A stretch of DNA of 59,757 nt from a virus (Duplodnaviria; Caudoviricetes). Of this stretch, positions 9,331 to 42,420 are shown in pieces (positions within the stretch are counted from its first letter, which is position 1; each line of letters begins with the position of its first letter). A program made the position numbers and the translations under genes. The notes below the pieces were generated by a model that worked only from the letters and a program-made list of their open reading frames with translations, had not been told where the DNA came from and made no database searches. The stretch covers positions 1-59,757 of IMG/VR virus record IMGVR_UViG_3300027983_000018. The stretch is one strand, 5' to 3'.

Positions 9331-9718
9331 TCCCGAAGTATCAGAGCTTGGATACAACATGCTAACAGCAAGACTTGACACAACAAACGTCATATATTGG
9401 CACTACAAACTTAAAAAATTAAGAAAAGAAAAAGACTTTAAAGTTAACACTGGTCCAAAAGCTAAAGACCTAATACATAAGTCTCATTCGCTAGTTGGAG
9501 TAAATCTAATGGATGATGGAGAAGCTGCAGGAATAGTAGCGTTCATAAAAAAACACATCGATTACATATCAAATGATTCCATCAACGCATACTTTGAAAA
9601 CCTAAACACAACAATGTTCTGGAACCTAACGGTAAACTCAAACAAAACCGTTGACGAAATACACGAGTTCAAGAAACAAATTAAAGCTTTAAACAATGAG
9701 CATAAACCTTCAGAATGA
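9287..9718 (+). CDS. hypothetical protein
   Basis: 143-aa ORF overlapping both neighbours. Confidence 0.7.
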   Translation: MQLEKKILDLITNSDPEVSELGYNMLTARLDTTNVIYWHYKLKKLRKEKDFKVNTGPKAKDLIHKSHSLVGVNLMDDGEAAGIVAFIKKHIDYISNDSINAYFENLNTTMFWNLTVNSNKTVDEIHEFKKQIKALNNEHKPSE

Positions 9719-13083: not shown

Positions 13084-14103
13084 ATGGAAAGTCTAAACCC
13101 AGAACAATTATTGGCCGTAAGTAATTTTTACGAGCAAGAAAACATTGCACTAAGTCCAAGTGCATTAAAGTTATTAATGACTAGCCCTGAAGCATACTAT
13201 AAGAAGTATGCTTTAAAGGAAGAAGAGAAAGTTAAAAAGAAGTTTTTTGATGAAGGTTCTCTTTTACACGCACTGGTTTTACAGCCAGACGAAGTAGCTG
13301 ACATGTTTGTAAACATGGTTGTATCAGCACCGCCAGACAGTGCAAAAACATTGTGTGATTATTTATTGGATCTTAATGATTTATCAGATCAGTTAGAGAT
13401 GTATGAAGAGCAGATCTTAACTTATTTAGCTGAGATAAATCTTCACCAGTCATTAGTTGATGATAAAAAAGCACCTTTTAAAACAGGGGATGAAAAGAGA
13501 TTAGAGAAAGTAATAACTGAAAATGCTATTCTTTATTTTGAATTAATGCACACCAACAAAGATAAAATCATTGTTGACAATGCATCTTGGGAGAAATGTG
13601 TAGACAAAAAAGATGCAATTCTTAAAAGTCCTTACGCAAAAAAGTTACTTTTAATTGATGGAGAGAAGCAAGAAATAAGTAAAGAATTGTTGTTGACAAA
13701 CAAGCACGATGGTATAAATTACACATTGAAAGGAATTTTAGATTGCATCAAAGTTGACAGAATTAATAAAAAGATTTATGTTACCGATTTAAAAACAACA
13801 TCTGCCTCTTTAAAAGAATTTGTGAAATCTGTTGAGACTCATGGATACTGGTTACAGGGAGCAATCTACTACCTTTTAGCGCACTCGTTGACTCAAGGTA
13901 CAGCAATGAATTATGAGATTGTAGTAAATTTCTTAGTTGTAGATGGTAAAAATCAAGTTTACAACTTTGAGGTTTCAAGTGAAACAATGGAGAGTTGGTT
14001 AATAAGATCAGAAGAAGTTATCAATGTTCAGTTTGAGTATCACTACAAGAATAAAGATTTCACTTTACCTTATTCTTTTGCAAATAATTTAATAACTTTG
14101 TAG
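13084..14103 (+). CDS. PD-(D/E)XK exonuclease (DUF3799/RecE-like)
   Basis: LSPSALK, GSLLHALVL, KGILD, DLKTT, YWLQGAIY motifs. Confidence 0.85.
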   Translation: MESLNPEQLLAVSNFYEQENIALSPSALKLLMTSPEAYYKKYALKEEEKVKKKFFDEGSLLHALVLQPDEVADMFVNMVVSAPPDSAKTLCDYLLDLNDLSDQLEMYEEQILTYLAEINLHQSLVDDKKAPFKTGDEKRLEKVITENAILYFELMHTNKDKIIVDNASWEKCVDKKDAILKSPYAKKLLLIDGEKQEISKELLLTNKHDGINYTLKGILDCIKVDRINKKIYVTDLKTTSASLKEFVKSVETHGYWLQGAIYYLLAHSLTQGTAMNYEIVVNFLVVDGKNQVYNFEVSSETMESWLIRSEEVINVQFEYHYKNKDFTLPYSFANNLITL

Positions 14104-29300: not shown

Positions 29301-29552
29301 AGTAGGTGTTCTTTTTAAATTAACCGGAGTTTCCCAAGTGTTTTCAACACCTAACATTTCAGCAACAGGATTTGTTTCGCTCTCTTCAAAAAAAACGTCT
29401 TCAGAAATTCCCAACTCACTAAGAGTTGGGAATATGTCAGTGTCATTAGTTTCCATGTACTCTGAGACAAGTGAAGCCAGTAAGTCTGGATGAAAATTAG
29501 TTTTTTTCTGTAACAATTTAAACTCTGCGTGTGATCTATTTATACATTTCAT
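23328..29552 (-). CDS. giant virion cargo (ejected) protein with a zincin-like domain
   Basis: 2074 aa; adjacent to the vRNAP; HEFAH (28788-28802) plus downstream EEA; hydrophobic C-terminal segment; N-terminal MKCIN. Confidence 0.8.
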   Translation of the reverse strand: MKCINRSHAEFKLLQKKTNFHPDLLASLVSEYMETNDTDIFPTLSELGISEDVFFEESETNPVAEMLGVENTWETPVNLKRTPTSDETLSIFLDNNALDFNEEELEKYNQVIKVVGETEALRDYLEYEKVIRSPELVLEKVLLLETESFENDLSQQNPFFDNDAADSAYNSENSTALELVGSVNEIVENNNKIIAIEAVIKLSKQLKVPYELMSRSEFETQFPGRGLVAGMFKEGKVYLIQDGLNKDTVFHEFAHAIIKSMSSDNPELFDKLYENLSLTPEGRTIIDSLKEGYAEYNLNGSNFKEEAIVHALTEAFKNNLDSKPGFFKELFFQIKQFLRKVLGKKINISNLSSATTLEELLSMINEGDAFNLNVDFLKGEDVEMFALMYDAQVAELKKISSDKTQAIVNEFYDVVTKMLGELTKENSSLSSLKEELSTDFNDSILQKMKKDLALISQNATNSTVSNLESDRFNTKVVNSSPEAIKDADNSLDLFDRKLRTFAKIMGQADALADHFSSTLAKMSTDDFNNDSEKIEKFYSIHVYVKNYVAFFNVKLADYFTNNNGGLLKEAFDKTNKKLTDLNTVLNNQVGDLVFESLYDHIIELNEPIETETRKELQTLYDKGLFQEYDNLYMDHYGFSLSEENEYNAFLKLNIETIKKNPEDLKRFRELELLMNSGRKITKEQVRLIAANVLSDSKSFMSYFSTAIKNQDLVISGFDSFLKKAFSTIGASQNKMTNEMMHGLQSILKGTKDSRIFGEEAFGRSIASIDTFGEVEKPNEKNTDKNKPVVFTPDVVVAREERVFKSNFKGFRFKLKELDNSISIAAKAFAADKTEPKQVILEDAIAAKYLFEAKYMNRDNIDSYYEADDLFYENNKLTDVGRSAKRKVTSIFEEINLYQNSFNEDPTDFTDAEEMNRLFYEYSQLSNIYDKNGVEKTGEDKEIALLLIKQKELNLNKHTYEYIPNKFELALTEYMTVLSEQFESTDSEEYLMAVDKWIERNTKIQVDPSYYEDRKKLTDERDLLLSNLLEKNIEKLEAENLISLKEGYEYLSANLSPTRNSDGMYDGTMMSKELQEEIKNKDIEIYKSKEKSIGSTGLTEEDNKKLINLENEESIRRLSKDDKDKLALLRLGIISGLNAYLKASEDLNKIKLINSQLQNNSFTSFTPIYKQTFLDILSKSPAAMEILLKNLKESDLNKYKDTVEIHYLSESFLKSILKNKTLVEKLKGESVEFQEWFGLNHFEKSEISRSASGNKRVIDVYSASSAWKFSGPTETNSYIAHSTPITFFSKGFVEDKSKRPRVPNMSYQEKKAIDSMINKEVLRDDISFNSKDEATINALANKDNKGRWLPKTEEQNGGDATYIDKSFMELLENDPAAFRALDYLKNIYLSEQDKLDISQRSYLTYPKERMGGVSRLYKGGPKAVLKRRVSKITRAFGFGFDEIDNLEEGLYAENKSIVSSSISERVTRPIHGLHHLDISETGTNILSLLADWNYSKEEFIRAREVNPFSQLLTETISSLSTDPKIKDFRDKMKDLNIFQKNVTPDLSKRLKFIRGLMDKHISGEQISYENKYFDKKYVTGALRIISTNQGIMATRSFIFNIKKSLTNYNGAKMMIYLKAFDKKLFSRTDLLKTRVLSARLMAMIVAKSYSRAALPALLQLSDVMDAIPDRIKNDRLAGSRSIIQDASISHIGFVDRKFFGNSASVHQFLAILHKNKISVNGKLIPLYDAVTLNDKGSLETVKGVPEDYQIKYIDGVASLGKGIKKLMAIHQDTLLKTIGASNDLHLPEFYRSTIARFTMFLIKFFPNMLTDKIKIGTVTTKGGLRITPRVNPITGRYEIGTYMGSIETILQLIRTRGQYVSPRNYLGALQVVALFLINKIHTAIIGSMKIYANVDGDDEDEDAYFNFDKDRDGIYNMLRYSTNALKAPSFFEAVDLEIDPTRTSTGGRSFDLENFLKVSFLDLGEMVANEMETFAPYTTEGKVPLLNSTYNMLIGKGVLQSSKPAVMEYIQAGMYLLDDKNPDSFYKQDSGPWSFQNEGSNKAWNIIMKAQFGLDGSFMDPVFGLENRISNKKRQ

Positions 29553-29553
29553 C

Positions 29554-32500
29554 TTAACAATTGTTTTTATCTTTTATCATGTTTTGTTGACGGTCTAAAG
29601 GTAAATCATTAAAATAAGATTCAGACATAGTTCCCCCTAAACTTTTGTATTCTGCAAATAAATCAGCAGAAACAGGTTCGCTTGATTGAGAATTGGTTAA
29701 TTCAATACCTATAGATTTTAACACTTTTCGTCCATTCTCTGACTTAGAATATTTTGTATTTATGTCATCAGCAAATTTTTCTAAAACTTGTTTTTGTGTA
29801 GAAGCACCTTCCGTATAAATAGTAAATACACCGCCTTTAGTATTTACTTCAATAAACCAGTTAAGAGCTGCTACATTGCCTTCCGAATTATAATGCTCCT
29901 TAGTCAAATACAATTCTACATTAGGAAATTCAGGGATTGTTATTTTGTAACCGGTTTTTGTTTGGTTCTCTTTTATGTAATTATTAAATAAAGTATATGT
30001 AATTTTTGTAGTTCCTTGTTTAAGCGCAGATACATTAATCGTTCCGGTTGCTTCAGTAGAAACAGGTTCGCTTGATTGAGAATTGGTTTCAGAAAATTCA
30101 GAAACATTTTCAGATTTAATATCCTCTAACATTTCTTTGTACAACAAAGCTTGCCTATCTATTGATGTATCAGGTACATTAGCCCTGTTTTCCCCTCTTG
30201 CAAGTTGATCTTTAATTCTTTGTTTAGCTAAAGCAGGATTTAATTCAAGTAACTTATATTCTACTTTAGTGTTTGGTGACGCAGAATTTATAGCACTTAT
30301 AAAATCTCTTCTTCTATCTTTTTGTAGGTTAGTCGAATCTATAACAACAGATTTACCACTTTTTAAAGCGGCTATAGCTCTTTCTTTTACAGCTTCATAA
30401 ATCTCTTTATCTTTAGATTTATCATCCATATTACCTGTAAATTCTACTCTCATTTCATCAGGTGAAATAACGGTATATTCATCTTTAGATAAAGTTTTAA
30501 TAAATGTACTTTTCCCACTACCGCTTATACCTATTGGTAATAGTATTGTTGCTTCAGTAGAGACAGGATTACTTGATTGAGAATTGGTTGAATTTGCAGT
30601 CCTAACTTCAAACTCTTTTGGTAAAACAATGTTCTCAGGAAGATTTTTATTTTCTAATAAAGATTTCATTTCTTGTTCAGTAAATCCAGCCATGTTAGTA
30701 CCAAATTTTGTAACAAGAAATTTTAATCCTGGATTATTATTAGCTTCTAAGATTAAAGCGTTAATAGATTGTTCTATTCTTGATGGAGGAACGCTTCGGG
30801 TTTTTCCTATTTTTAAAAATCCATTACTTATAGATGCAGCTTTTGTTACAATTCCAAAAGATTTCCCTTCTGTTCCTTGCATAAGTTTGTCTACAATTCC
30901 ATATTCAGACCATTTACCTTTAGTTCCTACAGGTAATGCTTTATACTCAGGAGTTACTGTTCCTCGTTGAGCTAATCCTGCTGTTCCACCTCCGTGTCCA
31001 CCTACTGTGTTTGCACCAAATACAAATACTTCGTTAGATTTTAAAGAAGTTATGTTTTCAGGTGTATATTCTCTTTCAGCACTACTTTGTTTAGTAGTAG
31101 TTGTTTGATTTGACTTGTTGTTTTCAGAATACTGAGGTTGTTTTTTACCAAAGGCTTCATATAAATCCAAATACCATTTTCCAGGCTTATAGTCAGCATA
31201 ATTTACAGTTTTCGTTTGATCGTATAATTTTTTACCATCTCTATCGTATTCATTGTATTGCATCCTAGCTGTTACAAAATTTCCTGTATTTTTAGGAGTA
31301 CTAAATTCAATGTAAATACCATGGTTACCTACCATAAGTCTTTCAAAAGTAGGTTCTTTTATTTTTAAAACTTGTTCGTTTTCTACTTTTAAAGTTGAAT
31401 TATCAGATTGAAGTTCTACTTTACCTAATTCCGGAAACGTATTTTGTAATTCATTTATGTAAACCGTTCTGATTTTATTATTAATGATTCCGATGTCTTC
31501 AGCGGATTTAGAATTAGCTAAATCTCTTATAAATGCTTGATACGTTTTAAGTCCTACATATCTCCAAAATTCACTAAACCAATAATAATTTGACTTGTTG
31601 TCTTTTTCGCTTGTCCCTTGGTATGTAGTTTTACCATTTGATGATTGTGCATTTCTTATGTATTGAGCAAGTACACTGTTAGTGTTTTTCATAAGGTACT
31701 GCTCTAAAAAAGAATCAGAAATAGAAATCCCTATGTCTATACCGCTTTTACTTAAAACGCTTGATGTTCCATCTTGTACATGTAAAACATTAATTAAATT
31801 TAAACGAAGCTTGTCATCTCCTTCAAGTTTTTTATTAATTTTATCAGAAACTATGTCGTAACCGTTAGATGCAATATCGGACTCATCCATGCCTTCAAAT
31901 AAGTTCATGTCATTAAGATACTTTTTTAATTCAATAAAAGGTCCGTTAGACAATCTAATGCCTTTCTTTGGTGAATAAAGAGGAGAAGTTTTTCCGTCGT
32001 AAGATTTAACTAACTCATAGTATTTTCCAATTTGAGCATAACGTATTATTTTCTTGTAACCTTCCTTAACTAAATAATCAATAGCTAATTTATCTATTCC
32101 ATTAGCTGTTCCAACATTAAAAGAAACTCCTTCTTTTATTGCTTTATCGATAACGGGAGCATACTTATTTGTAAAATCGGCAACTAATATTTGCTGGTAA
32201 GAAGTTTCAGTCTCTCCTCCTCTGGAAGATTTAAAGTTTCCTGCTCCAAAAATCCATACTGCATCTGAAGAAACAAATTGTTCATCAAAAGCAGAGCTGT
32301 TAATTTCCTTAATCTTACGAATGTAATTACGGGTAGAACTTTTATTTCCACTAAGGTATTCTGGTGCAGCTTTAGAAGGGAATGCGATTGCTTTATTGCT
32401 ATTGTTAGCCATAGTTTCGTCTTTAACCCAATTGTTTTTTTTCTTGTTAATAGCATCAGCAATAGACAACCCATCTTTTATTTTGAATAAAGGAACTGAT

Positions 32501-35500
32501 TGTAAAACAGGAGACGTTGAAGAATTGTCAACACCAAAGTATTTAAGAAGCAGTGCATTAAATGTTTTTTCATTTATTCCTGGACCGCTTGGTGGAATTA
32601 TTTTATCATCTTGAAATGCTATTTTTTTACCTAGCCATGACTTAAAAAGTTCCTCCAATGAATCAATCGTCATACCAGGCATTTCGTCAAAAAACACACC
32701 TGATTCAACTATAACAAAAAACTCATCTTCTTTAGTAGCATCGTTTAAGTTTTCATAAATGAAAATGTCACCTTCAGTCATTACTGTTTTTTTAATTGTA
32801 GAAGTTGTTACAAAAGCAAGAGGTACGTTTAACGTGTAGTCAGAACCTCTTGATCGTTGCTTATATTCCATTGGAGTAAGGTCATTAAACAGGTTAAAAT
32901 ACTGATCTAACAATCTACCATCTGCCTTATTAATTTTAATGCTTTCTGTTTCCATTTGTTTTTGAATATCAGCAAAAACTTTTAGTATTCTTTCTGAAGC
33001 AAATGTTTTTTGAATAACAGTTTCCATTCTGCTTTTAGTGTCCAACTTTCCTAAATAGTATTTTGATTTAGTATTTGAACCCGCCTGCATTGTTGAAATG
33101 TGAGAGAAATTATCTAATGAAAAAAACGAGTTAATGTCAGGATTACTGTTATTGGACAAGTCAATTAAATTTTCTAAGTACACAGCCATTATTCGTGGAT
33201 CAGTCGTGTCCTGTAAATAAAGATTACTCTTTTTAGAGTTGTCGTTTTTCCTTTCAGTATCTGAACGCAAATCTTCAACAAGAGAATAATGACTTAACTC
33301 GTCAGCATACCTTTCTTTAAGAGCTTTAAATCTTGCAGAAGTACCAATGTTTGAATCAAACATTACAGAAGGAGACTGAGTGTTGTAAGCAGCAACTAAC
33401 TTTGGTATAGCATCAATGTGGTATCTATCAAAGAACCAATGTTTTTCTCGTATTTCTTTTTCTGATACTCCAACAAACGATTCTTTAACATTTCTTAATT
33501 CAATCAAGTATTTAACATACTCTGTCATTTGACCATCTTTGTAAAGATTGTTGATAGTTCTGTCTAGAAACATATCATGCCTTAATTTATTTACATTGTA
33601 AGTTACTTCTCCATTTACTTCGTTTACTTTAATTGCTTCCTTTTGAGTTTTGTTTTCTGTTAGCTTGTAAACAACAGGAGAACCGTTAGCTAACTGAGTA
33701 GAATAACTTACTGGACTGTACATAGCATTTTGATACAAGAACAACGAGAAGTCATTTTTAAATGCGTTAATCATCACGTTTTTAAATACACCTTTTTTAA
33801 CCTTTAGAGACAACGCTTTTTTATTTAAAATTTCGTGGTTTCTTATTTTGAAAAAACGAGTAAATAAATTAATGATAAAGTCTTTGTCTTTAAACAATCC
33901 AATTGGTGTACTTTCAAAACCTTTCTCCCAAGACAAAGGTATAGCAGAAGGCTTACTAAACAGACTTTCTAATTGTTTTTTGTTTTGTTCAGCATCTGTA
34001 ATGTTTGCAATTTTCTTAGTGTCAAACTTATTTGCTTGCTGAAATTCAGTAAGATCTTTTGTTATTAATTCTATGTTTAAGTACTGAGCAAGTAATCTTA
34101 AATCTTCTGAATTAGGAGCTTCTCCAACACGATCCAATAATTGTTTTTCTGTATAAACTTCAGTTTCATTCAAGTTGTTTATTGAACTAAAACTAAGATT
34201 ATCGTATCCAGATGATTTTATTAAATCGGAGTATCTTCTAGCAAGTTCGTCTTGAGCTAATTGATTTACTTTAAAAGAAGTTTCAGAATCAATTATCGGA
34301 TTAGTTCCAGGGTCATTGGAAATATTCGAATAAACACCAAGCATTTCTTTTTTGATTTGATTGTACTCAATAACTAAAGGATTAGAAGATAAGTAAATCG
34401 CATCGCTTACAGGAACACCAGCCATAACCATAAACAACAAGTTAGGAGTATTTTCCTTGTTTCCTTGAACATTAAAAATCCAAGCTTTTTTAGCAACATC
34501 CAAGTAACCATTTATAAGTTGAGAAATCGTATCTGCAATTAACGCAGGTGCTTTATCACTTGAGTATCTTTTACCAATTGTAATTCTTTTATTGTCTCCT
34601 TCTCCTACAGAGTTGTGAGATAGCTTCAATGTCATTGACTTAAACGTGTGAAATATATCCAATGATTTATTTTTCTTATCAGCCTTATTGAATTTTGTTA
34701 AGTCATCAATTGAAGGTGGATTTAAGTTTCCTCCAAACGCAGTAAATGTAGCATAGAAAGTTGAAGTAACCGCAGCAATACCTAAAGCTTCCATTGCTAC
34801 AGAATTTTCTTGATGTTTTTGTAAGTTGTACAAGTAATCAAAAATAGAAGTACCGGAAATTACGCTGTTACTTGTTTGAGTATCCTCAAATTTTTCGTAC
34901 TTGTTGTAATCCCGTTTAACCTTTGCTTCCATGTCATTTGCAATTGGAAGAACTCGGTCTGTTGTATTTGGTGTAACTAAATCAACAAAGTTTTCTGGAG
35001 ATGAAATCTTAGAAATCATTGTTGCTAAAATATCATTCTCCACTCCTTTCGTAGTGTATCCAAGAGAAGCTCGTTCTAACTCAGCTCCTTTGTTTTCTTT
35101 TTGTAATTTAATCTGTAGTCTTACCGCTTTTTTTGCTTCTTTGTTTTTAATGAAAAATTCTTTAAGTTCACTTTTCATAGAACCCGTTGCTTCAAAAATC
35201 AAATCCTCCAACTTTCGATTGTTCTCCTCAAGTTGAGTGTATAAAGAATTTATTTGATTTTCAAGTATTTCTACAATTTCGTGAACCCTTGTGTTGTTTA
35301 ATTTCTGACCTCCAAAAAATCCAGTAACAATTACTGATCCTTTTGTTTTTTTGAAATCGGATATTTGATCAAAAACTTCTCTGGAAGCATTGTACAAAAA
35401 CGAATATTCTTCTGAAGAAAAAGCATCTTTTTGCTCATCATATTTTTTTGCAGACTCGTCATTTAACCTCTCGATTTCTTCATACAACGGTTTCAGAACA

Positions 35501-38500
35501 GTCAGCTCAAATTCCTCAACTTTTTGTTTTGCGTCAGCTGTTCCATTAGTGTCGTAACCAACATACTTAATCATCTCAGGTTTACCATTTACAAAACCAA
35601 AGTTAGGGTACATGAAAAACAACTTGTCAATATCGTAATCTGCTCCAGACTTAGCCACAATTTCTGATGGCAAAATTACTTTAGTTCCAGCGTACTTAGG
35701 TAAAAACTCCGCAACTATTACAGCATCAAGAGCATTCGGCCCTTGTGTTGGAATACGAACACCAGCGAATGTAATAAAGCTTCGGTTAGTTTTATTCCAC
35801 TCAGGGTTTTTAATTGATTCATTCAACCTTTTTAAAGATTCATCATAATCCAATTCTTTTTTAATTTTTCCGTCTACTTCAATTTTAGTATAAGCTGCAA
35901 TCTTTTCCCCACCTGTATGATAATCTAAATGAAACAGTTTTTCAAAGTCTCCTTGAAGTGCAATTTTAACTTCCATAAAAGAAGGAGACCCGTCTAATGT
36001 TTTTCGATAAAACTTTAATTCGTTTGTTGCATCAAACTCTAAGTCATTATCCTCATACATTGTACCAGAAGCCTGAACTAATGCTTCACCATTAACTTTA
36101 AGTTTACGAAGTTTGTTGTCAACCAGAGTAACTAAAATGGATTCTAATTTCTCTGCATTTAATGAATAAGAAAGATCTCTTAGATTTCCTGTTTCGCTAT
36201 TAACAATTGCTTCAATTTCGTGAGGCAAGAAATCACTTTTTGCTAATTCTTTTTGTAAAAACTTAATTATGTTTTCTTGGTTTCCTTCGTATTCTCCAGT
36301 AACATTATTAAACTGCATACCTAAATCGGCAAGGATGTCTTGTTTAAAATGCTCTCTAAGCTGAGTCATTGAACTGTTGTAATCTTTGTACCAACTATAG
36401 TTTTTAGATTCCTTAACTTTTTGTTTTTCATCTAAGCTATCCCAATCAAGAGTGCCTTTATAATCAGTAGGTACTCCGTTGTCAGCAATACCGTGAAGAA
36501 TCATTTTCCTCATTTGTGTAGCCAAGGTAACTTTACCTTTAAATCCTTCTGCTAAGTAAACTTGATTTTTTAAATGCTTTACTGAGATAATGTTTTTAAC
36601 AAATTCCAAACCAGTATTTACCTTTCTGTTTTCGTCATAAAATACATCTGATTTTTTAACCAACTTGTCTGCTTCTTTATCATAGGCAACTTCGCTTAAC
36701 GTAGAAAGTTTAGAACCAGATTGCATTGTAACATAATCAAGACCTTGTTCCATCATGCTATTATGCAAGCTTTCTAATTTCTTGTTTTTAATTAATGCAG
36801 GAATAAGTGGCATTAATGAATACTTGTGGAACGCTGTAAAAGCAGATCCAGGTTGTAAATTTTTATCTGTTGTTACAGGTCCAAAATACTGAAACTTTTT
36901 TATTGGAAAAGTTGTCTTGTATTTATTTGAAGAAATTTTTTCGCCCTTCAACATTTTTTGATACAAGTCTTCCTGACCTTCCGACCATTCATCGCAAGAT
37001 ATGTTCAACAATCTGTATGAGTCAAAAGAGATCCAGCCTTGACCATCCGCTTCCTCCATGTTTTTATAGGTGGACGCAACTTCAGTTCCCATCAGTTCCT
37101 CCATCTCATCAATGTACTTAGCTGAATGAATCGATTCTGAAATAACTCCTGTATTCAACATACCATTGTATGCGTAATCCAAATCAATTCCTTTTGATTT
37201 ATTGTGAGCTTTTGCAAAAGCTCTGTTGTTAAACAAACCTTGGTTATTAACAAACTTTAAAAAAGCATCGTCAGATACAAAAATCTTACCTGTAGAGATC
37301 ATACCAGCATTACGCTTGTGGTAATCTTCTTTCCCAATGTTAAACAATACAGGATCTCCTAAAAACAAAGAAGAGTAGTTCATGTTTTGCAAGAAGTTAT
37401 TTGTGATATGACTTCTGAAAAGACGCTCCATTGTTTCATTTCGGTTGACTTTTTTATTTTCATCTTTGACTTCAAACTTACTCATGATGTTGTCAGGCAT
37501 TTCAACATCTTGCTTAATCTTTAAAAGTTCAGCTGATCTTTTACCAAAATAAGAAACTAAATCTTTTTCTATTTTTTTCTCCAATGCTCTACTTACTGCA
37601 GAATTAATACTGAAACTTTGTAGTTCATTTCCTTTTGCTAAATAGTCAGAGTAAGATTTTAAAAGAGCCTTTTTGTTTTCGTCGCTTATTATGTTAGAAA
37701 AAGAAGACCATTCTTGACCACGTTCTAAAAAGTTAAAATCATAAACATGTTTCTCATCTGGATTATCTTTTATGTATTGGGCTACTTGTTTAAGTCTTAA
37801 AATTCTAATTATTTCCGCCTCGATGTGACCTGAAAAGTCTCCGTATAACATAACTCCGTCATAGTCTTCAGAAAACACCTTGTCTATGGTTTCAATGTCA
37901 AACGCAAGCTTCCCTGTTTTACCACCAATTAAACTTCCAGACTCTGTAGTCTGACTTGCATAAACTGCAAGAGAAGAAGACTTAGCTTCAGACCTTGGTA
38001 TTTCTTGCATACCGTAATCTGTCAATAAAACATCTGTAATGAATTTAGTTTTTTCATCTGATCCAATTGATGAAACTCCTTTATCCACAGTTGTAGTTTG
38101 AGGATTCTCTCCGTTCTTTGTAATTTCCGTGTGAACAACTTTAGAACCAGAAATGTTTTCAATGTAAATCTTAATACCTGTATTTCTTACACCGTGAGTT
38201 GAAGAGGTTACAGGAGAATCTAAATTAAACATTGAAACAATCCACTTGTTTGCAGCTATCTGAGGATTCGATCTAAAATCAAACTTTTCCATTCCTGGAA
38301 TAGAAAGTAATTCGTCATAAGATTGAGCCGCATTAAGTGCTTGTATTTCAATTGTTAAAGAAGAGTTCAAAGACTTCTCACTTGCCATTTCTCCATAAGC
38401 CGTTCTACTCATAAAACTTGAGTTGTCGTTTGAATACTTTTGATGAAGCTTAGCTACAGTAGAAAGAAATCCAATTTTACCTTGAAACTTTACAGGAGGA

Positions 38501-41500
38501 GAGCCTACAGAATAATCTTTAAATAATTGGTCTAACGAGCGATACTTTGATTCTGGCTGATCAATCGATCTTTGTTCTAAGAACTCAGAAAAATAAGAAA
38601 AACTACTAGCCTTTAACTCAAGAGAAGGGTCGCCATACCAGAAACTATCTTTAACAACGGGATCATTTACTAGATCTATACCAACAGCTCTTAGAAAAGC
38701 AACAGGGTCAGCTTCACTTTTTGTGCTAGTTGGGTTTTTAGAGTAAAGTTTCTTTTGGTCAGGACTTAAAGAATTGTACTCTAATATTGTTACATAACCA
38801 ACACCATTAGTTAAATCATGTACCTTTAAGTTTGGTTGAAATTCTAAAATGAATTTTTGCAAATCAAAGTAAGCAGCTCCTGGTGTAACTACTCCATCTC
38901 TTTCAATCATATCACTTGAAGAATAAGGACCTGTTTCCATTTTTCCAATAAACGAATCTTTCCAATCATTTATAACAAAAGCATAACTTTTATTAATATC
39001 TCCAGAGTAAGATTGAGTTGTTGCAGAAGACTTGTCAAAAGCACCTCCTTGGTCAATAGTTGTAGTCTTTTCAATAACCTGTGCTCTTAACATAACATCC
39101 GCTTTGTTAAAAGTTTGCCAAAAAGAAATCCACTGTTTAACTTCACTAACAGTAGCATTTGACAAAGGGTCGCCTAATTTATACAACATTTGATTAAGCT
39201 CTTTGTCTGTTTTTCCAGCTTCAACTAATCGAGCGTACATTACTTGTCGGTCATTTGTATTAGCAAGAAGCTTTGCAACTTTAGCAAACATTGTTTTGAA
39301 AGGAACTAATTTCTGTACGTTTAACGCGTTCATGTTAGATACACCCTTACCGTTTGAACCATAAGAACGAACACTGCTTAATAGCATTTTAGTATGCTCA
39401 TCGGCTAAATCTAGTATAGCTGACTCATTCCCAGAACGATCAAAAATCAAACGAACATTGTCTCCTGAATCAGATTCAGCAAGCTGTTCGTCAATTGAAT
39501 CTTCCGCAGTATCTGTAACTTGAAGTCCACTATAAGAATTAAAAAACAAAGACGAAATGTCTTGATACGTATCTTGAGTAGTGTACGTATTGTCGTTGTT
39601 AAAATCTCCAAAATTGTCAATTATTTTTGTTACAGTTTCAAAAATAAATTTGCTTTTTAAATCAGTTTTGTCATTTAAAAATTTACTTTCAGCAATAACT
39701 TTTTGTTGAACAAAAGAATTTTTCATAAAAAGAAAAGCATTCTTTAATAATACAGGGTGTGTCTTAAAACGAAAAGTACCGTATCCATTAAAAATACTAA
39801 GATTGTCTTTCTTAAATTGTTCAATTTCTTTTTCCAGTGCTGCATATTGAGCCGCCTGTTTAATTGGATCCATACCTGCCAACGTAATAACTCTCATAAA
39901 TTGAGCTCTATCTGGAATTTGTCCTTCCGGAACAATAGCTACAGAATTAACACCAGAGTCAATGTAATTAGAAAGAAAAGACTGCATAGATTCCATAGCT
40001 AAATGAACTTCCTCTAAAGAAAATTCAAGTTGCGTTGTCCCATCTTCATTGATTTTTTTAATTTCAGATGAGTTATACATTGCGCTTAAATTCCTGTTGT
40101 CAAAAGAAGACGATTTTAGGTCTCCTTTATAAAGAGCAGAAAATAAAGCATTGGTCATACCGTTAGTTCTGTTTAAAGCTATTGCCTCTGCAAAAGTGCT
40201 GTTACCAAAGAAAGACTTTAATAAGTTTAACATCTTCTCAAAAAATTCTTTTACTTTTCCTTTTTGAGAAGTAACTCCTTTAACTGCAAATTTTTTAAAT
40301 TCTTCAGCTAAATATTCTTCAAGTTGTAATTCTGTTGCCAAAGAAAAAGAAACACTTGTTTCTTTACCGTAAACAGTAACTGTGAAATAACCAGGCTTCG
40401 TTCTTAAAGTGTCATACATTTCTTTTTGTTGTTCACGACTTAAAACCCCCATAGAAAAAGCATGGAACGCTTCGTGATAAATGTCTGTCTTATCGGAACC
40501 GTGATAAAGAGTAATCATATTATCAACAAACTCAGCAACAAACTGAGGACCTAATGCATGAATTTCATCTGTTAAATGAAGTCTTATTAGTTTTGATAGG
40601 GGGTGATTTTCAAACCAACTTTCTGCATCCTTCTCTTGTTTTTCAGTAACACGAGCTTGATTTTTCTTAGATGTTGACTGAAAAAAAGTATCGGCATTAT
40701 TTGATCCTAGTATAGTTTCTTCTTTAACTTCTTCTTCTGTTTTTTCTGTAATTTTTTCAAAAGAACTTGGTTTAAAAGATAAGTAAGGAGGAACCGATTT
40801 AAGCTCTTTGTTTTTCATACGAATACGAACATTACCGTTTGCAATAACATGTTCTTTAAACTTGCTCTTTTTCATCTCAAAAACTCCATCTTTAAAAGAT
40901 TGGAGAACTGTAACATTTGAATCTAAAGTCGTTGTTTCTTCTTGGTTAAAATTGATTAACGAAAATTGTTTTCTGTAATAAACACCATCCTTAACATATA
41001 CTTGGTTGTTTTCTGTTGCGTTTTGTTCTGAACCAATATCAGTAATATCTAAGTAATTTAAGGCTTTGTCATATTGGATAGAAACTCCCTCGTAAACATA
41101 GTTGCGAAATGCTGTTGTTATTTCAGCTTTATTTGTGTCATTTATTTCAAAACTTGAACCTGCAATTGTAATAGACTTTTCGTTTTTTGAAAAAATAACT
41201 CCTGTTAAATTCGCTCTAACAATAGTTTTAAAAATATTTTTTCTACTTGCTTTCTTCCAAAAAACATCTCCTGTTTTAACTTTGATTTCTCCTTCAAAAA
41301 ATATAAGAGCCAGCAACGCTTCAAATTGATCTTGCGTAATTTTATTTAACGCATTTTCAGAAATATTAACAGGTGTGCTACCACCCTCTGGTATTATGTT
41401 TACTCTTTTTGATTTTTTAGTCATAGAGATTGTTAACTCTAATACATCTAAGTTTTTAATTTCTGAAATAGGAACTACTTCATTTATGTTCATTGACAAT

Positions 41501-42417
41501 ATCTCAGCATTTTTACTCTTAGTTGCATCTATTTCCAAGAAGTAATCTTCACCCTTTTCTAATGCAGAATTGATGTTTAACAACAGTGAAGTGTATTCAG
41601 CAAGAGCTTTTCTAGCTTGCTCTCTTGCTTCAGCAACAGGAATGTTTTTTTGTTTAGCAATTATTCCCGGCAATATGCCTAAAGCATAATTGTTTTCAGA
41701 CTCTGAGTTTTTTATTTTCAAAACGGGTGTACGCATTGTACCGTCTTCATCTTCAAATTTTAAAACATTTCCGTTTAAATCCGTTGGGATTAAAACAATA
41801 TCGTTGTCGTTGATTTGGTAAGGAGTAACATAAGCCTCGTTTTCTTTAACATCGGAATAACGTACCGCTTTTAGTTTATTGTTTCCAGAAAAATCTTTAA
41901 GTATTAACTCAATTGCTTTTGAAACAAAACGACCTTTGCTACTTAAATTCTCTGTTCCTTGAGCAGTAGAGGCAAGCTCCAAGCTTTGATTGTACGTTTT
42001 ATTAAAAATAAAAGATAACGGAGTGAAGTCATTAACAACAGTGGTGATCGTATTGCTGTTTCCAATTAGACTAGAAATCTCTGAAATTACATCCGATAAG
42101 TTTTTGTCAGTTACTGAACCAGCAATAACTTTACCTCTAAGGATTCCGATTTCTTTAAGAAGATTTAGATTCGGCTTAGTTACGGGAGAGTTCATGTGAG
42201 AAAAAATCATCTCTGGAGCAATCAACATGTGTTGAAGAATAAGCTCTTTGTTTTTATTCTCAGTAAACTCAGGAGAAGAAAGGGACAACACAGCTGAATT
42301 AAATAGCTGTGTCATCATGTCTTTTGAAGTTATTTCTGTATTATAAAATGCGGGGATTGTTTTTTTAAAATACGCACTAAATAATTTTATTGAATTTGGA
42401 GTAATACAAATGTTCAT
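29554..42417 (-). CDS. virion-packaged DNA-dependent RNA polymerase (phi14:2 gp66-like) with N-terminal zincin and C-terminal accessory domains
   Basis: GADYDIDKL catalytic motif (35626-35640), RIPTQ, DGQGW, KYSLMPL; HEAFH...EEYLAEEF zincin at ~40300-40480; 4287 aa. Confidence 0.92.
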   Translation of the reverse strand: MNICITPNSIKLFSAYFKKTIPAFYNTEITSKDMMTQLFNSAVLSLSSPEFTENKNKELILQHMLIAPEMIFSHMNSPVTKPNLNLLKEIGILRGKVIAGSVTDKNLSDVISEISSLIGNSNTITTVVNDFTPLSFIFNKTYNQSLELASTAQGTENLSSKGRFVSKAIELILKDFSGNNKLKAVRYSDVKENEAYVTPYQINDNDIVLIPTDLNGNVLKFEDEDGTMRTPVLKIKNSESENNYALGILPGIIAKQKNIPVAEAREQARKALAEYTSLLLNINSALEKGEDYFLEIDATKSKNAEILSMNINEVVPISEIKNLDVLELTISMTKKSKRVNIIPEGGSTPVNISENALNKITQDQFEALLALIFFEGEIKVKTGDVFWKKASRKNIFKTIVRANLTGVIFSKNEKSITIAGSSFEINDTNKAEITTAFRNYVYEGVSIQYDKALNYLDITDIGSEQNATENNQVYVKDGVYYRKQFSLINFNQEETTTLDSNVTVLQSFKDGVFEMKKSKFKEHVIANGNVRIRMKNKELKSVPPYLSFKPSSFEKITEKTEEEVKEETILGSNNADTFFQSTSKKNQARVTEKQEKDAESWFENHPLSKLIRLHLTDEIHALGPQFVAEFVDNMITLYHGSDKTDIYHEAFHAFSMGVLSREQQKEMYDTLRTKPGYFTVTVYGKETSVSFSLATELQLEEYLAEEFKKFAVKGVTSQKGKVKEFFEKMLNLLKSFFGNSTFAEAIALNRTNGMTNALFSALYKGDLKSSSFDNRNLSAMYNSSEIKKINEDGTTQLEFSLEEVHLAMESMQSFLSNYIDSGVNSVAIVPEGQIPDRAQFMRVITLAGMDPIKQAAQYAALEKEIEQFKKDNLSIFNGYGTFRFKTHPVLLKNAFLFMKNSFVQQKVIAESKFLNDKTDLKSKFIFETVTKIIDNFGDFNNDNTYTTQDTYQDISSLFFNSYSGLQVTDTAEDSIDEQLAESDSGDNVRLIFDRSGNESAILDLADEHTKMLLSSVRSYGSNGKGVSNMNALNVQKLVPFKTMFAKVAKLLANTNDRQVMYARLVEAGKTDKELNQMLYKLGDPLSNATVSEVKQWISFWQTFNKADVMLRAQVIEKTTTIDQGGAFDKSSATTQSYSGDINKSYAFVINDWKDSFIGKMETGPYSSSDMIERDGVVTPGAAYFDLQKFILEFQPNLKVHDLTNGVGYVTILEYNSLSPDQKKLYSKNPTSTKSEADPVAFLRAVGIDLVNDPVVKDSFWYGDPSLELKASSFSYFSEFLEQRSIDQPESKYRSLDQLFKDYSVGSPPVKFQGKIGFLSTVAKLHQKYSNDNSSFMSRTAYGEMASEKSLNSSLTIEIQALNAAQSYDELLSIPGMEKFDFRSNPQIAANKWIVSMFNLDSPVTSSTHGVRNTGIKIYIENISGSKVVHTEITKNGENPQTTTVDKGVSSIGSDEKTKFITDVLLTDYGMQEIPRSEAKSSSLAVYASQTTESGSLIGGKTGKLAFDIETIDKVFSEDYDGVMLYGDFSGHIEAEIIRILRLKQVAQYIKDNPDEKHVYDFNFLERGQEWSSFSNIISDENKKALLKSYSDYLAKGNELQSFSINSAVSRALEKKIEKDLVSYFGKRSAELLKIKQDVEMPDNIMSKFEVKDENKKVNRNETMERLFRSHITNNFLQNMNYSSLFLGDPVLFNIGKEDYHKRNAGMISTGKIFVSDDAFLKFVNNQGLFNNRAFAKAHNKSKGIDLDYAYNGMLNTGVISESIHSAKYIDEMEELMGTEVASTYKNMEEADGQGWISFDSYRLLNISCDEWSEGQEDLYQKMLKGEKISSNKYKTTFPIKKFQYFGPVTTDKNLQPGSAFTAFHKYSLMPLIPALIKNKKLESLHNSMMEQGLDYVTMQSGSKLSTLSEVAYDKEADKLVKKSDVFYDENRKVNTGLEFVKNIISVKHLKNQVYLAEGFKGKVTLATQMRKMILHGIADNGVPTDYKGTLDWDSLDEKQKVKESKNYSWYKDYNSSMTQLREHFKQDILADLGMQFNNVTGEYEGNQENIIKFLQKELAKSDFLPHEIEAIVNSETGNLRDLSYSLNAEKLESILVTLVDNKLRKLKVNGEALVQASGTMYEDNDLEFDATNELKFYRKTLDGSPSFMEVKIALQGDFEKLFHLDYHTGGEKIAAYTKIEVDGKIKKELDYDESLKRLNESIKNPEWNKTNRSFITFAGVRIPTQGPNALDAVIVAEFLPKYAGTKVILPSEIVAKSGADYDIDKLFFMYPNFGFVNGKPEMIKYVGYDTNGTADAKQKVEEFELTVLKPLYEEIERLNDESAKKYDEQKDAFSSEEYSFLYNASREVFDQISDFKKTKGSVIVTGFFGGQKLNNTRVHEIVEILENQINSLYTQLEENNRKLEDLIFEATGSMKSELKEFFIKNKEAKKAVRLQIKLQKENKGAELERASLGYTTKGVENDILATMISKISSPENFVDLVTPNTTDRVLPIANDMEAKVKRDYNKYEKFEDTQTSNSVISGTSIFDYLYNLQKHQENSVAMEALGIAAVTSTFYATFTAFGGNLNPPSIDDLTKFNKADKKNKSLDIFHTFKSMTLKLSHNSVGEGDNKRITIGKRYSSDKAPALIADTISQLINGYLDVAKKAWIFNVQGNKENTPNLLFMVMAGVPVSDAIYLSSNPLVIEYNQIKKEMLGVYSNISNDPGTNPIIDSETSFKVNQLAQDELARRYSDLIKSSGYDNLSFSSINNLNETEVYTEKQLLDRVGEAPNSEDLRLLAQYLNIELITKDLTEFQQANKFDTKKIANITDAEQNKKQLESLFSKPSAIPLSWEKGFESTPIGLFKDKDFIINLFTRFFKIRNHEILNKKALSLKVKKGVFKNVMINAFKNDFSLFLYQNAMYSPVSYSTQLANGSPVVYKLTENKTQKEAIKVNEVNGEVTYNVNKLRHDMFLDRTINNLYKDGQMTEYVKYLIELRNVKESFVGVSEKEIREKHWFFDRYHIDAIPKLVAAYNTQSPSVMFDSNIGTSARFKALKERYADELSHYSLVEDLRSDTERKNDNSKKSNLYLQDTTDPRIMAVYLENLIDLSNNSNPDINSFFSLDNFSHISTMQAGSNTKSKYYLGKLDTKSRMETVIQKTFASERILKVFADIQKQMETESIKINKADGRLLDQYFNLFNDLTPMEYKQRSRGSDYTLNVPLAFVTTSTIKKTVMTEGDIFIYENLNDATKEDEFFVIVESGVFFDEMPGMTIDSLEELFKSWLGKKIAFQDDKIIPPSGPGINEKTFNALLLKYFGVDNSSTSPVLQSVPLFKIKDGLSIADAINKKKNNWVKDETMANNSNKAIAFPSKAAPEYLSGNKSSTRNYIRKIKEINSSAFDEQFVSSDAVWIFGAGNFKSSRGGETETSYQQILVADFTNKYAPVIDKAIKEGVSFNVGTANGIDKLAIDYLVKEGYKKIIRYAQIGKYYELVKSYDGKTSPLYSPKKGIRLSNGPFIELKKYLNDMNLFEGMDESDIASNGYDIVSDKINKKLEGDDKLRLNLINVLHVQDGTSSVLSKSGIDIGISISDSFLEQYLMKNTNSVLAQYIRNAQSSNGKTTYQGTSEKDNKSNYYWFSEFWRYVGLKTYQAFIRDLANSKSAEDIGIINNKIRTVYINELQNTFPELGKVELQSDNSTLKVENEQVLKIKEPTFERLMVGNHGIYIEFSTPKNTGNFVTARMQYNEYDRDGKKLYDQTKTVNYADYKPGKWYLDLYEAFGKKQPQYSENNKSNQTTTTKQSSAEREYTPENITSLKSNEVFVFGANTVGGHGGGTAGLAQRGTVTPEYKALPVGTKGKWSEYGIVDKLMQGTEGKSFGIVTKAASISNGFLKIGKTRSVPPSRIEQSINALILEANNNPGLKFLVTKFGTNMAGFTEQEMKSLLENKNLPENIVLPKEFEVRTANSTNSQSSNPVSTEATILLPIGISGSGKSTFIKTLSKDEYTVISPDEMRVEFTGNMDDKSKDKEIYEAVKERAIAALKSGKSVVIDSTNLQKDRRRDFISAINSASPNTKVEYKLLELNPALAKQRIKDQLARGENRANVPDTSIDRQALLYKEMLEDIKSENVSEFSETNSQSSEPVSTEATGTINVSALKQGTTKITYTLFNNYIKENQTKTGYKITIPEFPNVELYLTKEHYNSEGNVAALNWFIEVNTKGGVFTIYTEGASTQKQVLEKFADDINTKYSKSENGRKVLKSIGIELTNSQSSEPVSADLFAEYKSLGGTMSESYFNDLPLDRQQNMIKDKNNC
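29668..30589. repeat. three dispersed direct repeats encoding the TNSQSS(E/N)PVS(TEAT) linker
   Basis: Copies at 29668-29698, 30047-30088 and 30548-30589; the first two share 31 identical bp. Confidence 0.9.
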
Positions 42418-42420
42418 ACG

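Follow-up and report, generated by a model that had tools for sequence, protein, structure and literature searches.

The DNA analysed here is a stretch of 59,757 nt from a virus of the Caudoviricetes (IMG/VR record IMGVR_UViG_3300027983_000018; hereafter the window), one ORF of which (P0001) encodes a giant protein whose last ~950 residues form a tail of small modules in the order M0/U1, M1, macro-like domain, Pnkp-type kinase and M4, followed by a short C-terminal cap, M5 (Table 1). The original prediction for this locus was that a virion RNA polymerase carries, after its body, an array of repeat-bounded accessory cassettes. Such an array is indeed present, and the motifs on which the prediction was built lie where they had been placed: VGTANGIDKLAIDYL at residue 3435 (nt 32113-5), RLMVGNHGIYIEF at 3693, KTVNYADYKPG at 3736, YTPENI at 3784, VFVFGAN at 3797, GISGSGKST at 3963 and VIDSTN at 4025. 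P0001 has 52 giant relatives of 2473-7427 aa and is itself flanked by two large ORFs (2279 and 2074 aa), the second of which starts 2 nt past its stop.

Table 1. Positions of the features of P0001 in the window
Feature	Position	Strand	Remarks
Predicted crAss-like virion RNA polymerase polyprotein with C-terminal cassette array (P0001)	29554..42417	-	4287 aa
HEAFH, HExxH zincin-type motif, N-terminal part	40462..40476	-	residues 648-652
RNAP region aligning with phi14:2 gp66 catalytic subunit	35599..37887	-	residues 1511-2273
DYDID	35626..35640	-	residues 2260-2264; aligned with gp66 catalytic motif DFDID
M0/U1, 239-240-aa unit with supposed SLOG motif	31672..32391	-	residues 3343-3582
17-nt repeat copy 1, upstream edge of M1	31588..31604	.	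encodes NKSN
M1 ('YADY') module	31126..31617	-	residues 3601-3764
17-nt repeat copy 2, downstream edge of M1	31108..31124	.	encodes NKSN
M2, macro-like domain, A1S_2505 family	30590..31077	-	residues 3781-3943
Linker repeat 1	30548..30589	-	TNSQSSNPVSTEAT
M3, P-loop 5'-OH polynucleotide-kinase-type domain (AAA_33 / Pnkp kinase)	30088..30547	-	
Linker repeat 2	30047..30088	-	TNSQSSEPVSTEAT
M4, rare domain	29699..30046	-	DNA shared with L011
Linker repeat 3	29657..29698	-	TNSQSSEPVSADLF
M5, conserved ~35-aa C-terminal cap	29557..29656	-	ends in Cys 4287

As judged by alignment, the body of P0001 is a homologue of gp66, the experimentally characterised virion RNA polymerase of the crAss-like phage phi14:2, as had been predicted in more general terms. 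Pairwise comparison gives an E-value of 4e-19 over 805 columns and sets DYDIDK of P0001, which is also the reading in the consensus of the giants, opposite DFDIDK of gp66. Since a phmmer search of the whole of P0001 against the PDB found only the kinase, the link to RNA polymerases needed tblastn and pairwise BLAST. By tblastn, 84 phage records were matched; their organism names begin with, among other words, uncultured (33), Bacteroides (29), CrAssphage (7) and Cellulophaga (2), and the features under these matches included a 'putative RNA polymerase' of the crAss001 type (1e-10) and phi14:2 g066, 'Catalytic RNA polymerase subunit'. Megablast of positions 29000-42500 against the phage collection matched nothing, and a scan of viral contigs with the polymerase core found no relatives. 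A consensus built from 22 full-length giants retains the HExxH motif of the N-terminal part in the form HExFHAF. P0001 and its two neighbours show the same terminal-cysteine pattern as gp65-gp67 of phi14:2; the neighbours have no BLASTP similarity to gp65 or gp67, and their Pfam and PHROG scans gave nothing useful. The phi14:2 genes g065-g067 are annotated from virion MS/MS, and by homology P0001 is probably a giant RNA polymerase carried inside the particle of a crAss-like freshwater phage.

Linkers and modules of the tail

The last cassettes of the tail are bounded by three direct repeats of 42 nt, which are mutually 86-100% identical and encode the expected TNSQSS(E/N)PVS, a peptide with no other occurrence in the six frames of the window. 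More generally, the intermodule spacers are rich in Ser, Thr, Gln and Asn, and their DNA, beyond the peptide, is nearly identical within one genome. Repeated 14-mers number 20 in the tail vs 0-3 in each of eight core windows of equal size. The 14-mer ATTTGACTTGTTGT had been picked out as bracketing the YADY segment; it occurs exactly twice, at 31108 and 31588 (chance expectation 0.15, with 1 of 100 shuffles reaching two copies), and grows to 17 nt with one mismatch. Taken alone this repeat is a weak signal, and its two copies flank M1 as delimited independently by homologues (q3601/3610-3754). The junction repeats of M1 and M0/U1 are both weak, the former being this 17-nt repeat and the latter a 9-of-12 match. 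The cassettes had also been described as more AT-rich than the core, which is clear at third codon positions, where GC is 0.182 in the tail and 50 non-tail windows taken from the three giant ORFs average 0.253 (sd 0.024, minimum 0.209), and marginal in bulk (GC 0.314 vs 0.326, with an sd of 0.014 among 2.9-kb windows). As an observation apart, short-read assemblies of these polymerase genes break at the linkers.

Two of the modules can be assigned to enzyme-like families, both in agreement with what had been proposed from their motifs. M3 matches AAA_33 (7e-21; 75 bits, cut-off 27), phrog_505 'polynucleotide kinase' (7.6e-15) and the kinase chain of Clostridium thermocellum Pnkp, 4jst (6e-4), with which it aligns through the P-loop and the following Asp; a further match to TIGR04075 (2e-12) is partial, covering profile positions 12-95 of 851 with 46 bits vs a cut-off of 750. 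M3 is a kinase domain only, no phosphatase or ligase family having been found in the tail, and a PHROGs scan of 20 window ORFs showed no RNA ligase. M2 matches NCBIfam A1S_2505 at 6e-20, and its Asn and Gly-rich loops are conserved across 77 sequences. In a Foldseek search with its model (pLDDT 89.5), named macrodomain proteins make up 25 of the 44 listed rows, with probabilities up to 0.97-0.99, a best E-value of 0.01 and TM values of 0.43-0.55. Because no Pfam family, Macro included, matches M2 at E up to 10, and because TARG1, at the top of a profile search against the PDB, reaches an E-value of 0.1 only, we call M2 macro-like and a member of A1S_2505. These models and matches support a macro fold with moderate confidence, and M2 may bind or remove ADP-ribose.

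The other modules are more elusive. Scans of M0/U1, M1, M4 and M5 against Pfam, NCBIfam and PHROG yielded sub-threshold noise only (RbcX, Annexin_2, LisH, etc.). M0/U1 had been taken for a SLOG-like domain, an identity that is not supported, as it has neither a family HMM match nor a fold match: its confident model (pLDDT 89.3) has no match in the PDB (best E 0.34, TM at most 0.28), with LOG, DprA and YpsA not among the matches listed, or in BFVD (best E 0.11). M1 also exists as a stand-alone phage gene of 156-183 aa; it has no usable match in the ESM Atlas, and in a profile search against the PDB its N-terminal helices weakly match an integrase fragment (2khq, E 0.0077) and nothing else. Among 1.84 billion representatives, M4 has 16 relatives, of which 8 lie inside proteins over 2600 aa, and scans of viral contigs found no relatives of M4 or M0/U1. 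The cap is conserved, with C in the last alignment columns in at least 90% of the rows of the giants' alignment and a Cys within the last 8 residues in 50 of 53 giants.

Exchange of cassettes between phages, and coexisting alleles

The modules behave as DNA cassettes: phages whose polymerase cores differ greatly have exchanged them, and they are found in differing orders and positions. Each module of the P0001 tail also occurs alone or in other contexts. The macro module is 65-82% identical in P0026, P0039-42 and P0045, whose cores align with that of P0001 at 22-36%, or over 78-276 residues only; P0026 also has an M4, 80% identical, placed ahead of its macro domain. For M1, identity is 58% in P0008, with a core at 36%, and in P0049, which retains a 34-aa macro-domain stump fused to M1. 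The kinase is 61% identical in P0044 and 54-55% in P0011 and P0012, where it is inserted at residues 816-981, between q786 and q797, with no linker-type spacer around the insertion. At the DNA level, phage L011 has in common with the window 527 nt of the macro cassette (90.9%; 31100-30574) and 391 nt of the M4 cassette (91.6%; 30079-29689), in reversed order, next to a polymerase core that is 22-32% identical in protein. Three of the four ends of these homology blocks fall in a shared 15-nt linker core, ACCAATTCTCAATCA, which is identical in all 3+3 copies of both phages, Ser codons included.

Other phages use other linkers. In L005, at least 7 copies of a 21-nt core, ACTCAATCATCTACTAGTGTT (TQSSTSV), one with one mismatch and five sharing 23 nt, separate six cassettes: 2OG-Fe(II) oxygenase, macro-like, NADAR, M0-like, unknown and SF1 helicase. 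NADAR, 2OG-FeII_Oxy_2 and AAA_30 helicase domains were detected in L005 and L003, and varied precomputed Pfam domains (PF08719, PF13532, PF13671, PF18760, PF12694 and PF25176) are present in 17 of the 52 giants. There is one linker type per protein, and since linker DNA differs between phages, recombination between lineages is limited. An exact 18-nt linker sequence had two matches in other viral contigs, neither of them an in-frame linker, and both were set aside (one lies within a Gln/Pro-rich ORF that is unrelated, and around the other there is no ORF longer than 100 aa).

Within the same samples, alleles coexist in which modules are present or absent. The allele evidence comes from contigs only, of other runs, and bears on allele frequency and on linkage to one genome for P0002 only. 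The arrangement in P0001 does not stem from faulty assembly, each of its junctions being bridged by contigs from other runs: one from X3 (record 10) spans 30065-30629, across linker 1; two from X4 (record 17, 27153-30453) and X5 (record 28, 29349-30311) both cross linkers 2 and 3; and one from X1 (record 6) covers 31059-32527, which takes in the macro start, M1, M0/U1 and adjacent core. P0002 is 95.4% identical to P0001 over q780-3351 and lacks M0/U1 and M1, and its macro domain is only 35% identical. In this allele type, M0/U1 is missing as a clean in-frame block of 717 nt (junction 31673->32391), and M1 is missing at a joint 31076->31616 that holds 23 other letters encoding SSSTASKK. Both junctions were found in contigs of X1, X3 and X4, at depths of 35.5, 7.25 and 14.5. 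A further joint, 31092->30055, which puts linker-2 DNA directly before the macro cassette, was found in X1, X3, X4 and X5. We treated P0002 as a fragment rather than a short natural form, since it starts at q780 and stops right after the macro domain without the Cys cap. Two other joints were not retained: 30499->34054, one side of which is only 22 letters, and 30631->31055, seen in X4 only and with intervening letters not known, which we read as a diverged macro core and not as a deletion. Stretches lacking cover and dips of depth in X4 and X5 were likewise set aside.

Comparison of the C-termini of relatives bears out part of the original idea of a recombination-driven plug-in array. Domain order is not invariant; relatives show gain, loss, reordering and exchange of cassettes, the breakpoints lying at linkers, and the objection that an invariant order would raise therefore falls away. 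One part that is not supported concerns M0/U1, which is no recent add-on, since 23 of 23 aligned giants or giant fragments carry it, at 27-46% identity in the segment.

Role of the linkers and of the packaged modules

We think it likely that the phage is a freshwater member of the crAss-like group (Crassvirales-type) and P0001 its virion-type RNA polymerase, with a polyvalent-type string of modules placed before the cap, linker DNA acting as recombination homology and the whole string packaged and ejected. The modules would be small, independently folding units between the polymerase body and the cap. Linker DNA would give co-infecting phages a short, portable stretch of homology at which to recombine, and would also allow deletion or rearrangement within one genome, and the linker peptide would act as a flexible spacer. 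Homology with phi14:2, and the case of crAss001 (PMC10172136), suggest that P0001 is packaged and ejected, the module string entering the cell with the polymerase as gp66 would. The cell might thus receive, ahead of any phage gene expression, a domain that binds or removes ADP-ribose and a 5'-kinase for RNA/DNA, which would most likely undo host defence modifications or damage. More tentatively, crAss-like phages may possess a plug-in system in which short linker DNA, kept identical by recombination, acts as docking sites, effector cassettes of the virion-injected polymerase are swapped, reordered or dropped both across very divergent phages and as standing variation within a population, and the Cys cap may tie ejected cargo head to tail.

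An alternative is that the linkers are polyprotein cleavage sites, at which a phage HExxH protease would cut at TNSQSS.PVS and release the modules as free enzymes, either within the capsid or once ejection has taken place, a role compatible with one in recombination, as both can hold. Candidate motifs are at hand in HEAFH at P0001 residue 648 and in HEFAH at residue 251 of the downstream ORF, like HEIMH at 245 in gp65. In the phi14:2 preprint (10.1101/2020.03.07.982082), fused polyproteins are described as 'likely cleaved' and gp65 is given a zincin-like protease domain, and autoproteolytic release in polyvalent proteins is proposed by Iyer et al. (PMC5512222). A single linker type per protein, different between phages, is also expected if protease and site co-evolve. 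However, selection on the peptide leaves the identical synonymous codons in all copies unexplained, and TNSQSS.PVS is found neither at the remaining domain boundaries of P0001 nor in the neighbouring giants, which makes cleavage appear unlikely, if still worth keeping in mind. A different possibility is that the linkers are mere flexible spacers, produced by tandem spacer-plus-domain duplication, with the tails made mosaic by illegitimate recombination and selection and the linker DNA playing no special part. Sequence rich in S, T, Q, N and P is typical of interdomain spacers; some insertions, such as that of the kinase in P0011 and P0012, have no linker, and the junctions of M1 and M0/U1 have weak repeats only. 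We nevertheless find this quite improbable: the cassettes flanked by linker copies are mutually unrelated, which excludes duplication of whole units, the 15-nt core is identical in 6 copies though the adjacent cassettes differ by ~9% in DNA and the polymerase cores share 22-32% protein identity, and three of the four homology-block ends lie inside that core.

The modules could also serve the polymerase's own transcription, for example in the processing of early transcripts at their 5' ends or in clearing ADP-ribose off the polymerase itself, rather than counter-defence. They are physically fused to the RNA polymerase, and kinase and macro-like domains in other systems can act on RNA ends or ADP-ribosylated macromolecules. 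This reading seems very improbable in view of a relative with a 95%-identical core that lacks two of the modules and has a very different macro domain, of the quite different sets in other relatives (oxygenase, NADAR, helicase), and of phi14:2 gp66, a protein of 2180 aa that lacks such a tail and yet, by the abstract of the preprint, is active.

Returning to cassettes that recombine at linker DNA, the wider interest is that proteins injected before phage gene expression give the phage its earliest response to host defences. If cassette swapping at linkers is true, it would explain very rapid turnover between 95%-identical strains, and would point to a straightforward way of recognising further effectors that act early (M0/U1, M1 and M4, without known function or fold match, being candidates). 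Laboratory systems could then also use the array as a natural scaffold with which to load proteins of choice into phage particles.

Comparison with known systems

At the level of single modules, M2 has a fold-level resemblance to macrodomain ADP-ribosyl hydrolases (TARG1/OARD1, viral nsP3 macro, Poa1p), its weak profile match to TARG1 covering the ..TK.. and GCGL-type loop, and its N...HGGG.AG.A motif resembles the MacroD/viral macro signature; it differs from them in lacking a Pfam Macro match, in its weak E-values and in belonging to the uncharacterised A1S_2505 family. M3 shares with bacterial Pnkp and T4 polynucleotide kinase the kinase domain, as seen in the AAA_33 match and the 4jst alignment, and unlike them has no phosphatase or ligase-related domain. 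At the level of the whole protein, polymorphic toxin systems have a constant N-terminal body and a variable C-terminal end diversified by recombination. P0001 likewise has a constant body and a variable end; unlike these toxins, it has several cassettes in series instead of one toxin tip, and a conserved cap after the array. Neither a silent downstream cassette nor an immunity gene follows P0001, given the position of the next ORF and the absence of the linker motif elsewhere in the window.

The resemblance to phi14:2 gp66 and the RNAP-associated cargo of crAss001 extends across the catalytic region and motif and to the terminal-cysteine pattern, and the setting among giant genes may correspond to the gp67-gp66-gp65 block. 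Unlike gp66, which has no accessory tail, P0001 has an HExxH-bearing N-terminal part and ~950 aa of cassettes. The idea of multi-enzyme proteins delivered with DNA is already published, as the polyvalent proteins of phages and conjugative elements, in which a polypeptide of many unrelated effector-type domains is expected to reach the host cell together with the DNA (Iyer, Burroughs, Anand, de Souza and Aravind 2017, PMC5512222); the main text of that paper includes an ADP-ribosyltransferase fused to N4-like RNA polymerases and raises possible recombinational variation of cassettes, and polymorphic toxin systems are mentioned there as well. Linkers are not discussed in this main text, where the word 'linker' has 0 occurrences. 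Linker-bounded cassette exchange appears undescribed, and the supplementary architecture tables of PMC5512222 and crAss genome surveys may already list such fusions. Like polyvalent proteins, P0001 has several unrelated effector-type domains (kinase, macro-like and three further modules), and its relatives carry NADAR, 2OG-Fe(II) oxygenase, P-loop kinase and SF1 helicase. Unlike the polyvalent proteins in the main text of PMC5512222, the carrier is a two-barrel RNA polymerase of crAss type and not of N4 type, and its array is set between the body and a conserved Cys-ended cap, with DNA-identical linkers bounding the cassettes.

The polymerase body and its neighbourhood

This 59.8-kb phage contig carries a replication module on one strand and a block of giant ORFs on the other, with the cassette array at the end of the ORF encoding P0001. 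The body of P0001 is, judging from sequence comparison, a crAss-type virion RNA polymerase. It is not recognised by Pfam or PHROGs, and tblastn with residues 580–3300 finds matches in 84 phage records, whose organism-name first words include uncultured (33), Bacteroides (29), CrAssphage (7) and Cellulophaga (2). Features under these matches include a crAss001-group "putative RNA polymerase" (1e-10) and g066 of Cellulophaga phage phi14:2, a "Catalytic RNA polymerase subunit"; the phi14:2 g065–g067 annotation derives from virion MS/MS. In pairwise BLASTP, residues 1401–2666 align with the g066 product, gp66 (E 4e-19, 805 columns), up to ...AKSGADYDIDKLFFMYPNF in P0001 and ...TKTGSDFDIDKMYVMLPNF in gp66. 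Two homing-endonuclease-type genes lie within the replication module. The phage also encodes an exonuclease VIII-like protein, no recombinase was identified in it, and the adjoining ORF without assignment could encode an annealing partner.

Features of the window and tail modules shared with giant relatives (identities are to P0001)
Feature	Position	Character	Relatives	Module identity	Core identity
Replication module	+ strand	DnaB-like helicase, primase, two homing endonucleases, exonuclease VIII-like protein, DNA polymerase, Dda-like helicase			
Homing-endonuclease-type gene	6050-7072 (+)	GIY-YIG/HNH			
Homing-endonuclease-type gene	9696-10928 (+)	HNH			
ORF adjoining exonuclease gene	12127-13083	318 aa, candidate annealing partner			
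Exonuclease VIII-like gene	13084-14103				
Giant-ORF block	- strand	2279, 4287 and 2074 aa, among others			
Downstream giant ORF	23328-29552	single Cys, position 3			
P0001 ORF	29554-42417	4287 aa; array at 3' end			
P0001 Cys 4287	29557-29559				
P0001 Cys 4	42406-42408				
Upstream giant ORF	42421-49260	single Cys, 2277 of 2279, two residues before end			
Linker 3	29657-29698	42-nt direct repeat			
Linker 2	30047-30088	42-nt direct repeat			
Linker 1	30548-30589	42-nt direct repeat			
M0/U1	residues 3343-3582	single confidently folded unit, predicted			
M1			P0008	58%	36%
M1			P0049	58%	barely alignable
M2 macro			P0026, P0039-42, P0045	65-82%	22-36%, or just 78-276 residues alignable
M3 kinase		insertion at residues 816-981 of relatives	P0011, P0012	54-55%	35%
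M3 kinase			P0044	61%	22-28% over partial stretches
M4		precedes macro in relative	P0026	80%	22-32%

Identity of the tail modules

The P-loop kinase proposed for M3 proves to be of the AAA_33/Pnkp type: the module matches AAA_33 in Pfam (7e-21), phrog_505 "polynucleotide kinase" in PHROGs (7.6e-15) and positions 12–95 of TIGR04075 (2e-12), and it aligns with 4jst, the kinase chain of C. thermocellum Pnkp, across the P-loop to the next Asp. In the tail, no phosphatase or ligase was found alongside it.

That M2 is a macro-like domain, as the original prediction held, we accept with moderate confidence. M2 scores 71.5 bits (cut-off 45) with NF049995, the uncharacterised "A1S_2505 family phage non-structural protein", to which it belongs; it has further matches to an Atlas lead and phrog_2072, and the 101 homologues found are mostly stand-alone. 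A Foldseek search of the PDB with its AlphaFold model (pLDDT 89.5, alignment of 77 sequences) gave nothing below E 1e-3; among the 44 rows listed, 25 carry macrodomain names (alphavirus and coronavirus macro domains, TARG1, Poa1p, MACROD2), the remainder being 11 designed serine hydrolases, three proteins of unknown function and five unrelated kinases. TARG1 is also the best PDB match of the family profile (E 0.1). A Pfam Macro match is absent, and the family conserves a stretch, ...N..G.HGGG.AG.A, which we take to resemble the classical macro signature. The second half of M2 matches Rhodobacter capsulatus phage genes annotated 'ADP-ribosyltransferase' (H19, H28–H30, H33, H38) and a 'DNA helicase' gene of gut crAss-like phage cr50_1 (H23/H24); the A1S_2505 domain is therefore fused elsewhere to other effector-type proteins.

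The SLOG-like label attached to M0/U1 is unsupported, because this module (model pLDDT 89.3, pTM 0.86, 25-sequence alignment) has no match in Pfam, NCBIfam or PHROG and none in structure searches of the PDB (best E 0.34) or BFVD (best E 0.11). M1 has invariant motifs (RLMV.NHG.Y.EF and VNYA.Y) and stand-alone homologues of 156–183 aa, and yielded no family or structure lead in family, PDB-profile and Atlas searches. It occurs free-standing as a 163-aa ORF on another viral contig (L008:5974-6462; 49% identical to the window's M1), which shows that small stand-alone phage genes and tail cassettes are drawn from one pool. A search of 1.84 billion representatives yielded just 16 relatives of M4, eight in proteins longer than 2600 aa and the others mostly fragments.

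Linkers and the exchange of cassettes

The tail is modular with DNA-identical linkers, modules have been exchanged horizontally with block ends in the linkers, and alleles coexist, all in keeping with the predicted recombination-driven array. When P0001 was compared by BLASTP with 52 giant relatives, the core was conserved to about residue 3470–3600 in P0003–P0025 (31–43% identity), the tails being unrelated past that point, and single modules were far closer in sequence than cores. L011, the contig carrying P0026, shares macro cassette DNA (90.9% over 527 nt, window 31100-30574) and M4 DNA (91.6% over 391 nt, window 30079-29689). Of the four ends of these blocks, three fall inside a 15-nt linker core, ACCAATTCTCAATCA, which is identical in all three L011 linkers (TNSQSD) and all three window linkers. 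In P0049, a 34-aa macro-domain stump joined directly to M1 is a recombination scar. Insertions lacking S/T-rich linkers also occur within cores: the kinase of P0011/P0012 lies between P0001 residues 786 and 797, and a ~190-aa insertion in P0005/P0007 (residues ~2905–3097) between 2907 and 2928. P0007 carries PF25176/DUF7831 at some position.

All the motif and repeat positions originally described were confirmed in the sequence. The linkers encode TNSQSS(E/N)PVS, with the same TNSQS codons in all three copies; two synonymous changes and one altered codon separate copy 2 from copy 3. Repeated 14-mers number 20 in the tail versus 0–3 per equal-size core window. The expected AT-richness of the cassettes is marginal in overall GC, just 1.2 points lower, and clear in GC3 (0.182, below 50 of 50 windows elsewhere in three giant ORFs; mean 0.253, sd 0.024). 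Cassette-separating linkers are general across relatives. On L005, an open ORF (at least 4099 aa) has a core 26% identical to P0001 over residues 993–2273 and six cassettes (2OG-Fe(II) oxygenase, macro-like, NADAR, M0-like at 36% identity to M0/U1, an unknown and an SF1 helicase) separated by its own linker, TQSSTSV, whose 21-nt core ACTCAATCATCTACTAGTGTT is present in at least seven copies (one with one mismatch, five sharing 23 nt), and other relatives have the linker-like peptides QPSTNV, QSTSV and EPSTSV.

The linkers may provide short homology for recombination. They are also possible cutting sites for an HExxH protease, the two roles being compatible, and such motifs are found as HEAFH at P0001 residue 648 and HEFAH at residue 251 of the downstream ORF. 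Identical synonymous codons in copies beside unrelated cassettes show homogenisation at the DNA level, beyond peptide selection. The array order is not an assembly artefact, since each of its junctions is spanned by contigs from other runs. In public short-read assemblies of this phage, contigs are interrupted at every linker (29619-29669, 29970-30138, 30589-30635), so such genes are likely truncated or mis-joined in metagenome assemblies, and the relative P0002 appears to be a fragment of that sort.

P0002 is 95.4% identical over residues 780–3351; its ...NNSNK runs straight into VLADYL..., without M0/U1, M1 is missing, and its macro domain is 35% identical to the window's. Contigs from two freshwater runs (X1, possibly the source sample, and X3) and an estuary run (X4) contain both junctions. 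The joint 31673->32391 is a clean in-frame 717-nt difference, and 31076->31616 has 23 other letters, encoding SSSTASKK. In contig-level data, P0002-type junction depths are 35.5, 7.25 and 14.5, and the window form has about 55 in X1 and about 28–30 in X3. Because all 23 giants or giant fragments that were aligned, and L005 too, contain M0/U1, the P0002 type has lost it. At a further joint (31092->30055 plus three letters), seen in X1, X3, X4 and X5 contigs, linker-2 DNA directly precedes the macro cassette (...TNSQSSEPVST-Q-KQSSAEREY...), an arrangement shared with L011.

Proposed function, precedents and the terminal cap

We propose that the module string would be ejected together with the polymerase, the macro-like domain reversing or binding ADP-ribose marks and the kinase phosphorylating 5'-OH ends produced by host nucleases. 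Phage use of ADP-ribose-reversing enzymes against DarTG1 is a precedent (PMC11825919). Polyvalent proteins, an ADP-ribosyltransferase fused to N4-like RNAPs, and the ideas of cassette recombination and autoproteolysis have already been published (PMC5512222), and crAss cargo proteins have been noted to occur fused as polyproteins (10.1101/2020.03.07.982082). In the main texts of the open full-text literature, we found no description of accessory enzyme cassettes on crAss-type RNAPs, of their linkers, or of A1S_2505/DUF7831 domains in a cassette role; passages from a Crassvirales review (PMC10136315) and from a structural study of crAss001 (PMC10172136) describe none of these, and those of the latter mention disulfides for tail and portal-vertex proteins only.

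The tail ends in the M5 cap, whose motif W.EYK...F..L..EEQ....KNC is common to many giants. Cysteines make up just 0.08% of the giants' residues, and 50 of 53 giants have one within the last eight residues; P0001 has three, at positions 4, 1808 and 4287 (the final residue). Since the conserved cap stands at the very end, new cassettes sit upstream of it, which suggests that it is needed there, e.g., for packaging or linkage to the next cargo protein. Cargo-block proteins are nearly Cys-free except at their ends (the window, L001–L007, L011 and L013), and the ORF after the giant has a Cys at position 3–5, with one or two in total, in eight of eight related loci. These sequence patterns suggest that the ejected proteins may be linked head-to-tail by Cys–Cys in gene order. 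The same pattern is seen in phi14:2, with cysteines at the last residue only of gp67, at residues 3 and 2179 of the 2180 in gp66, and at residue 3 only of gp65.
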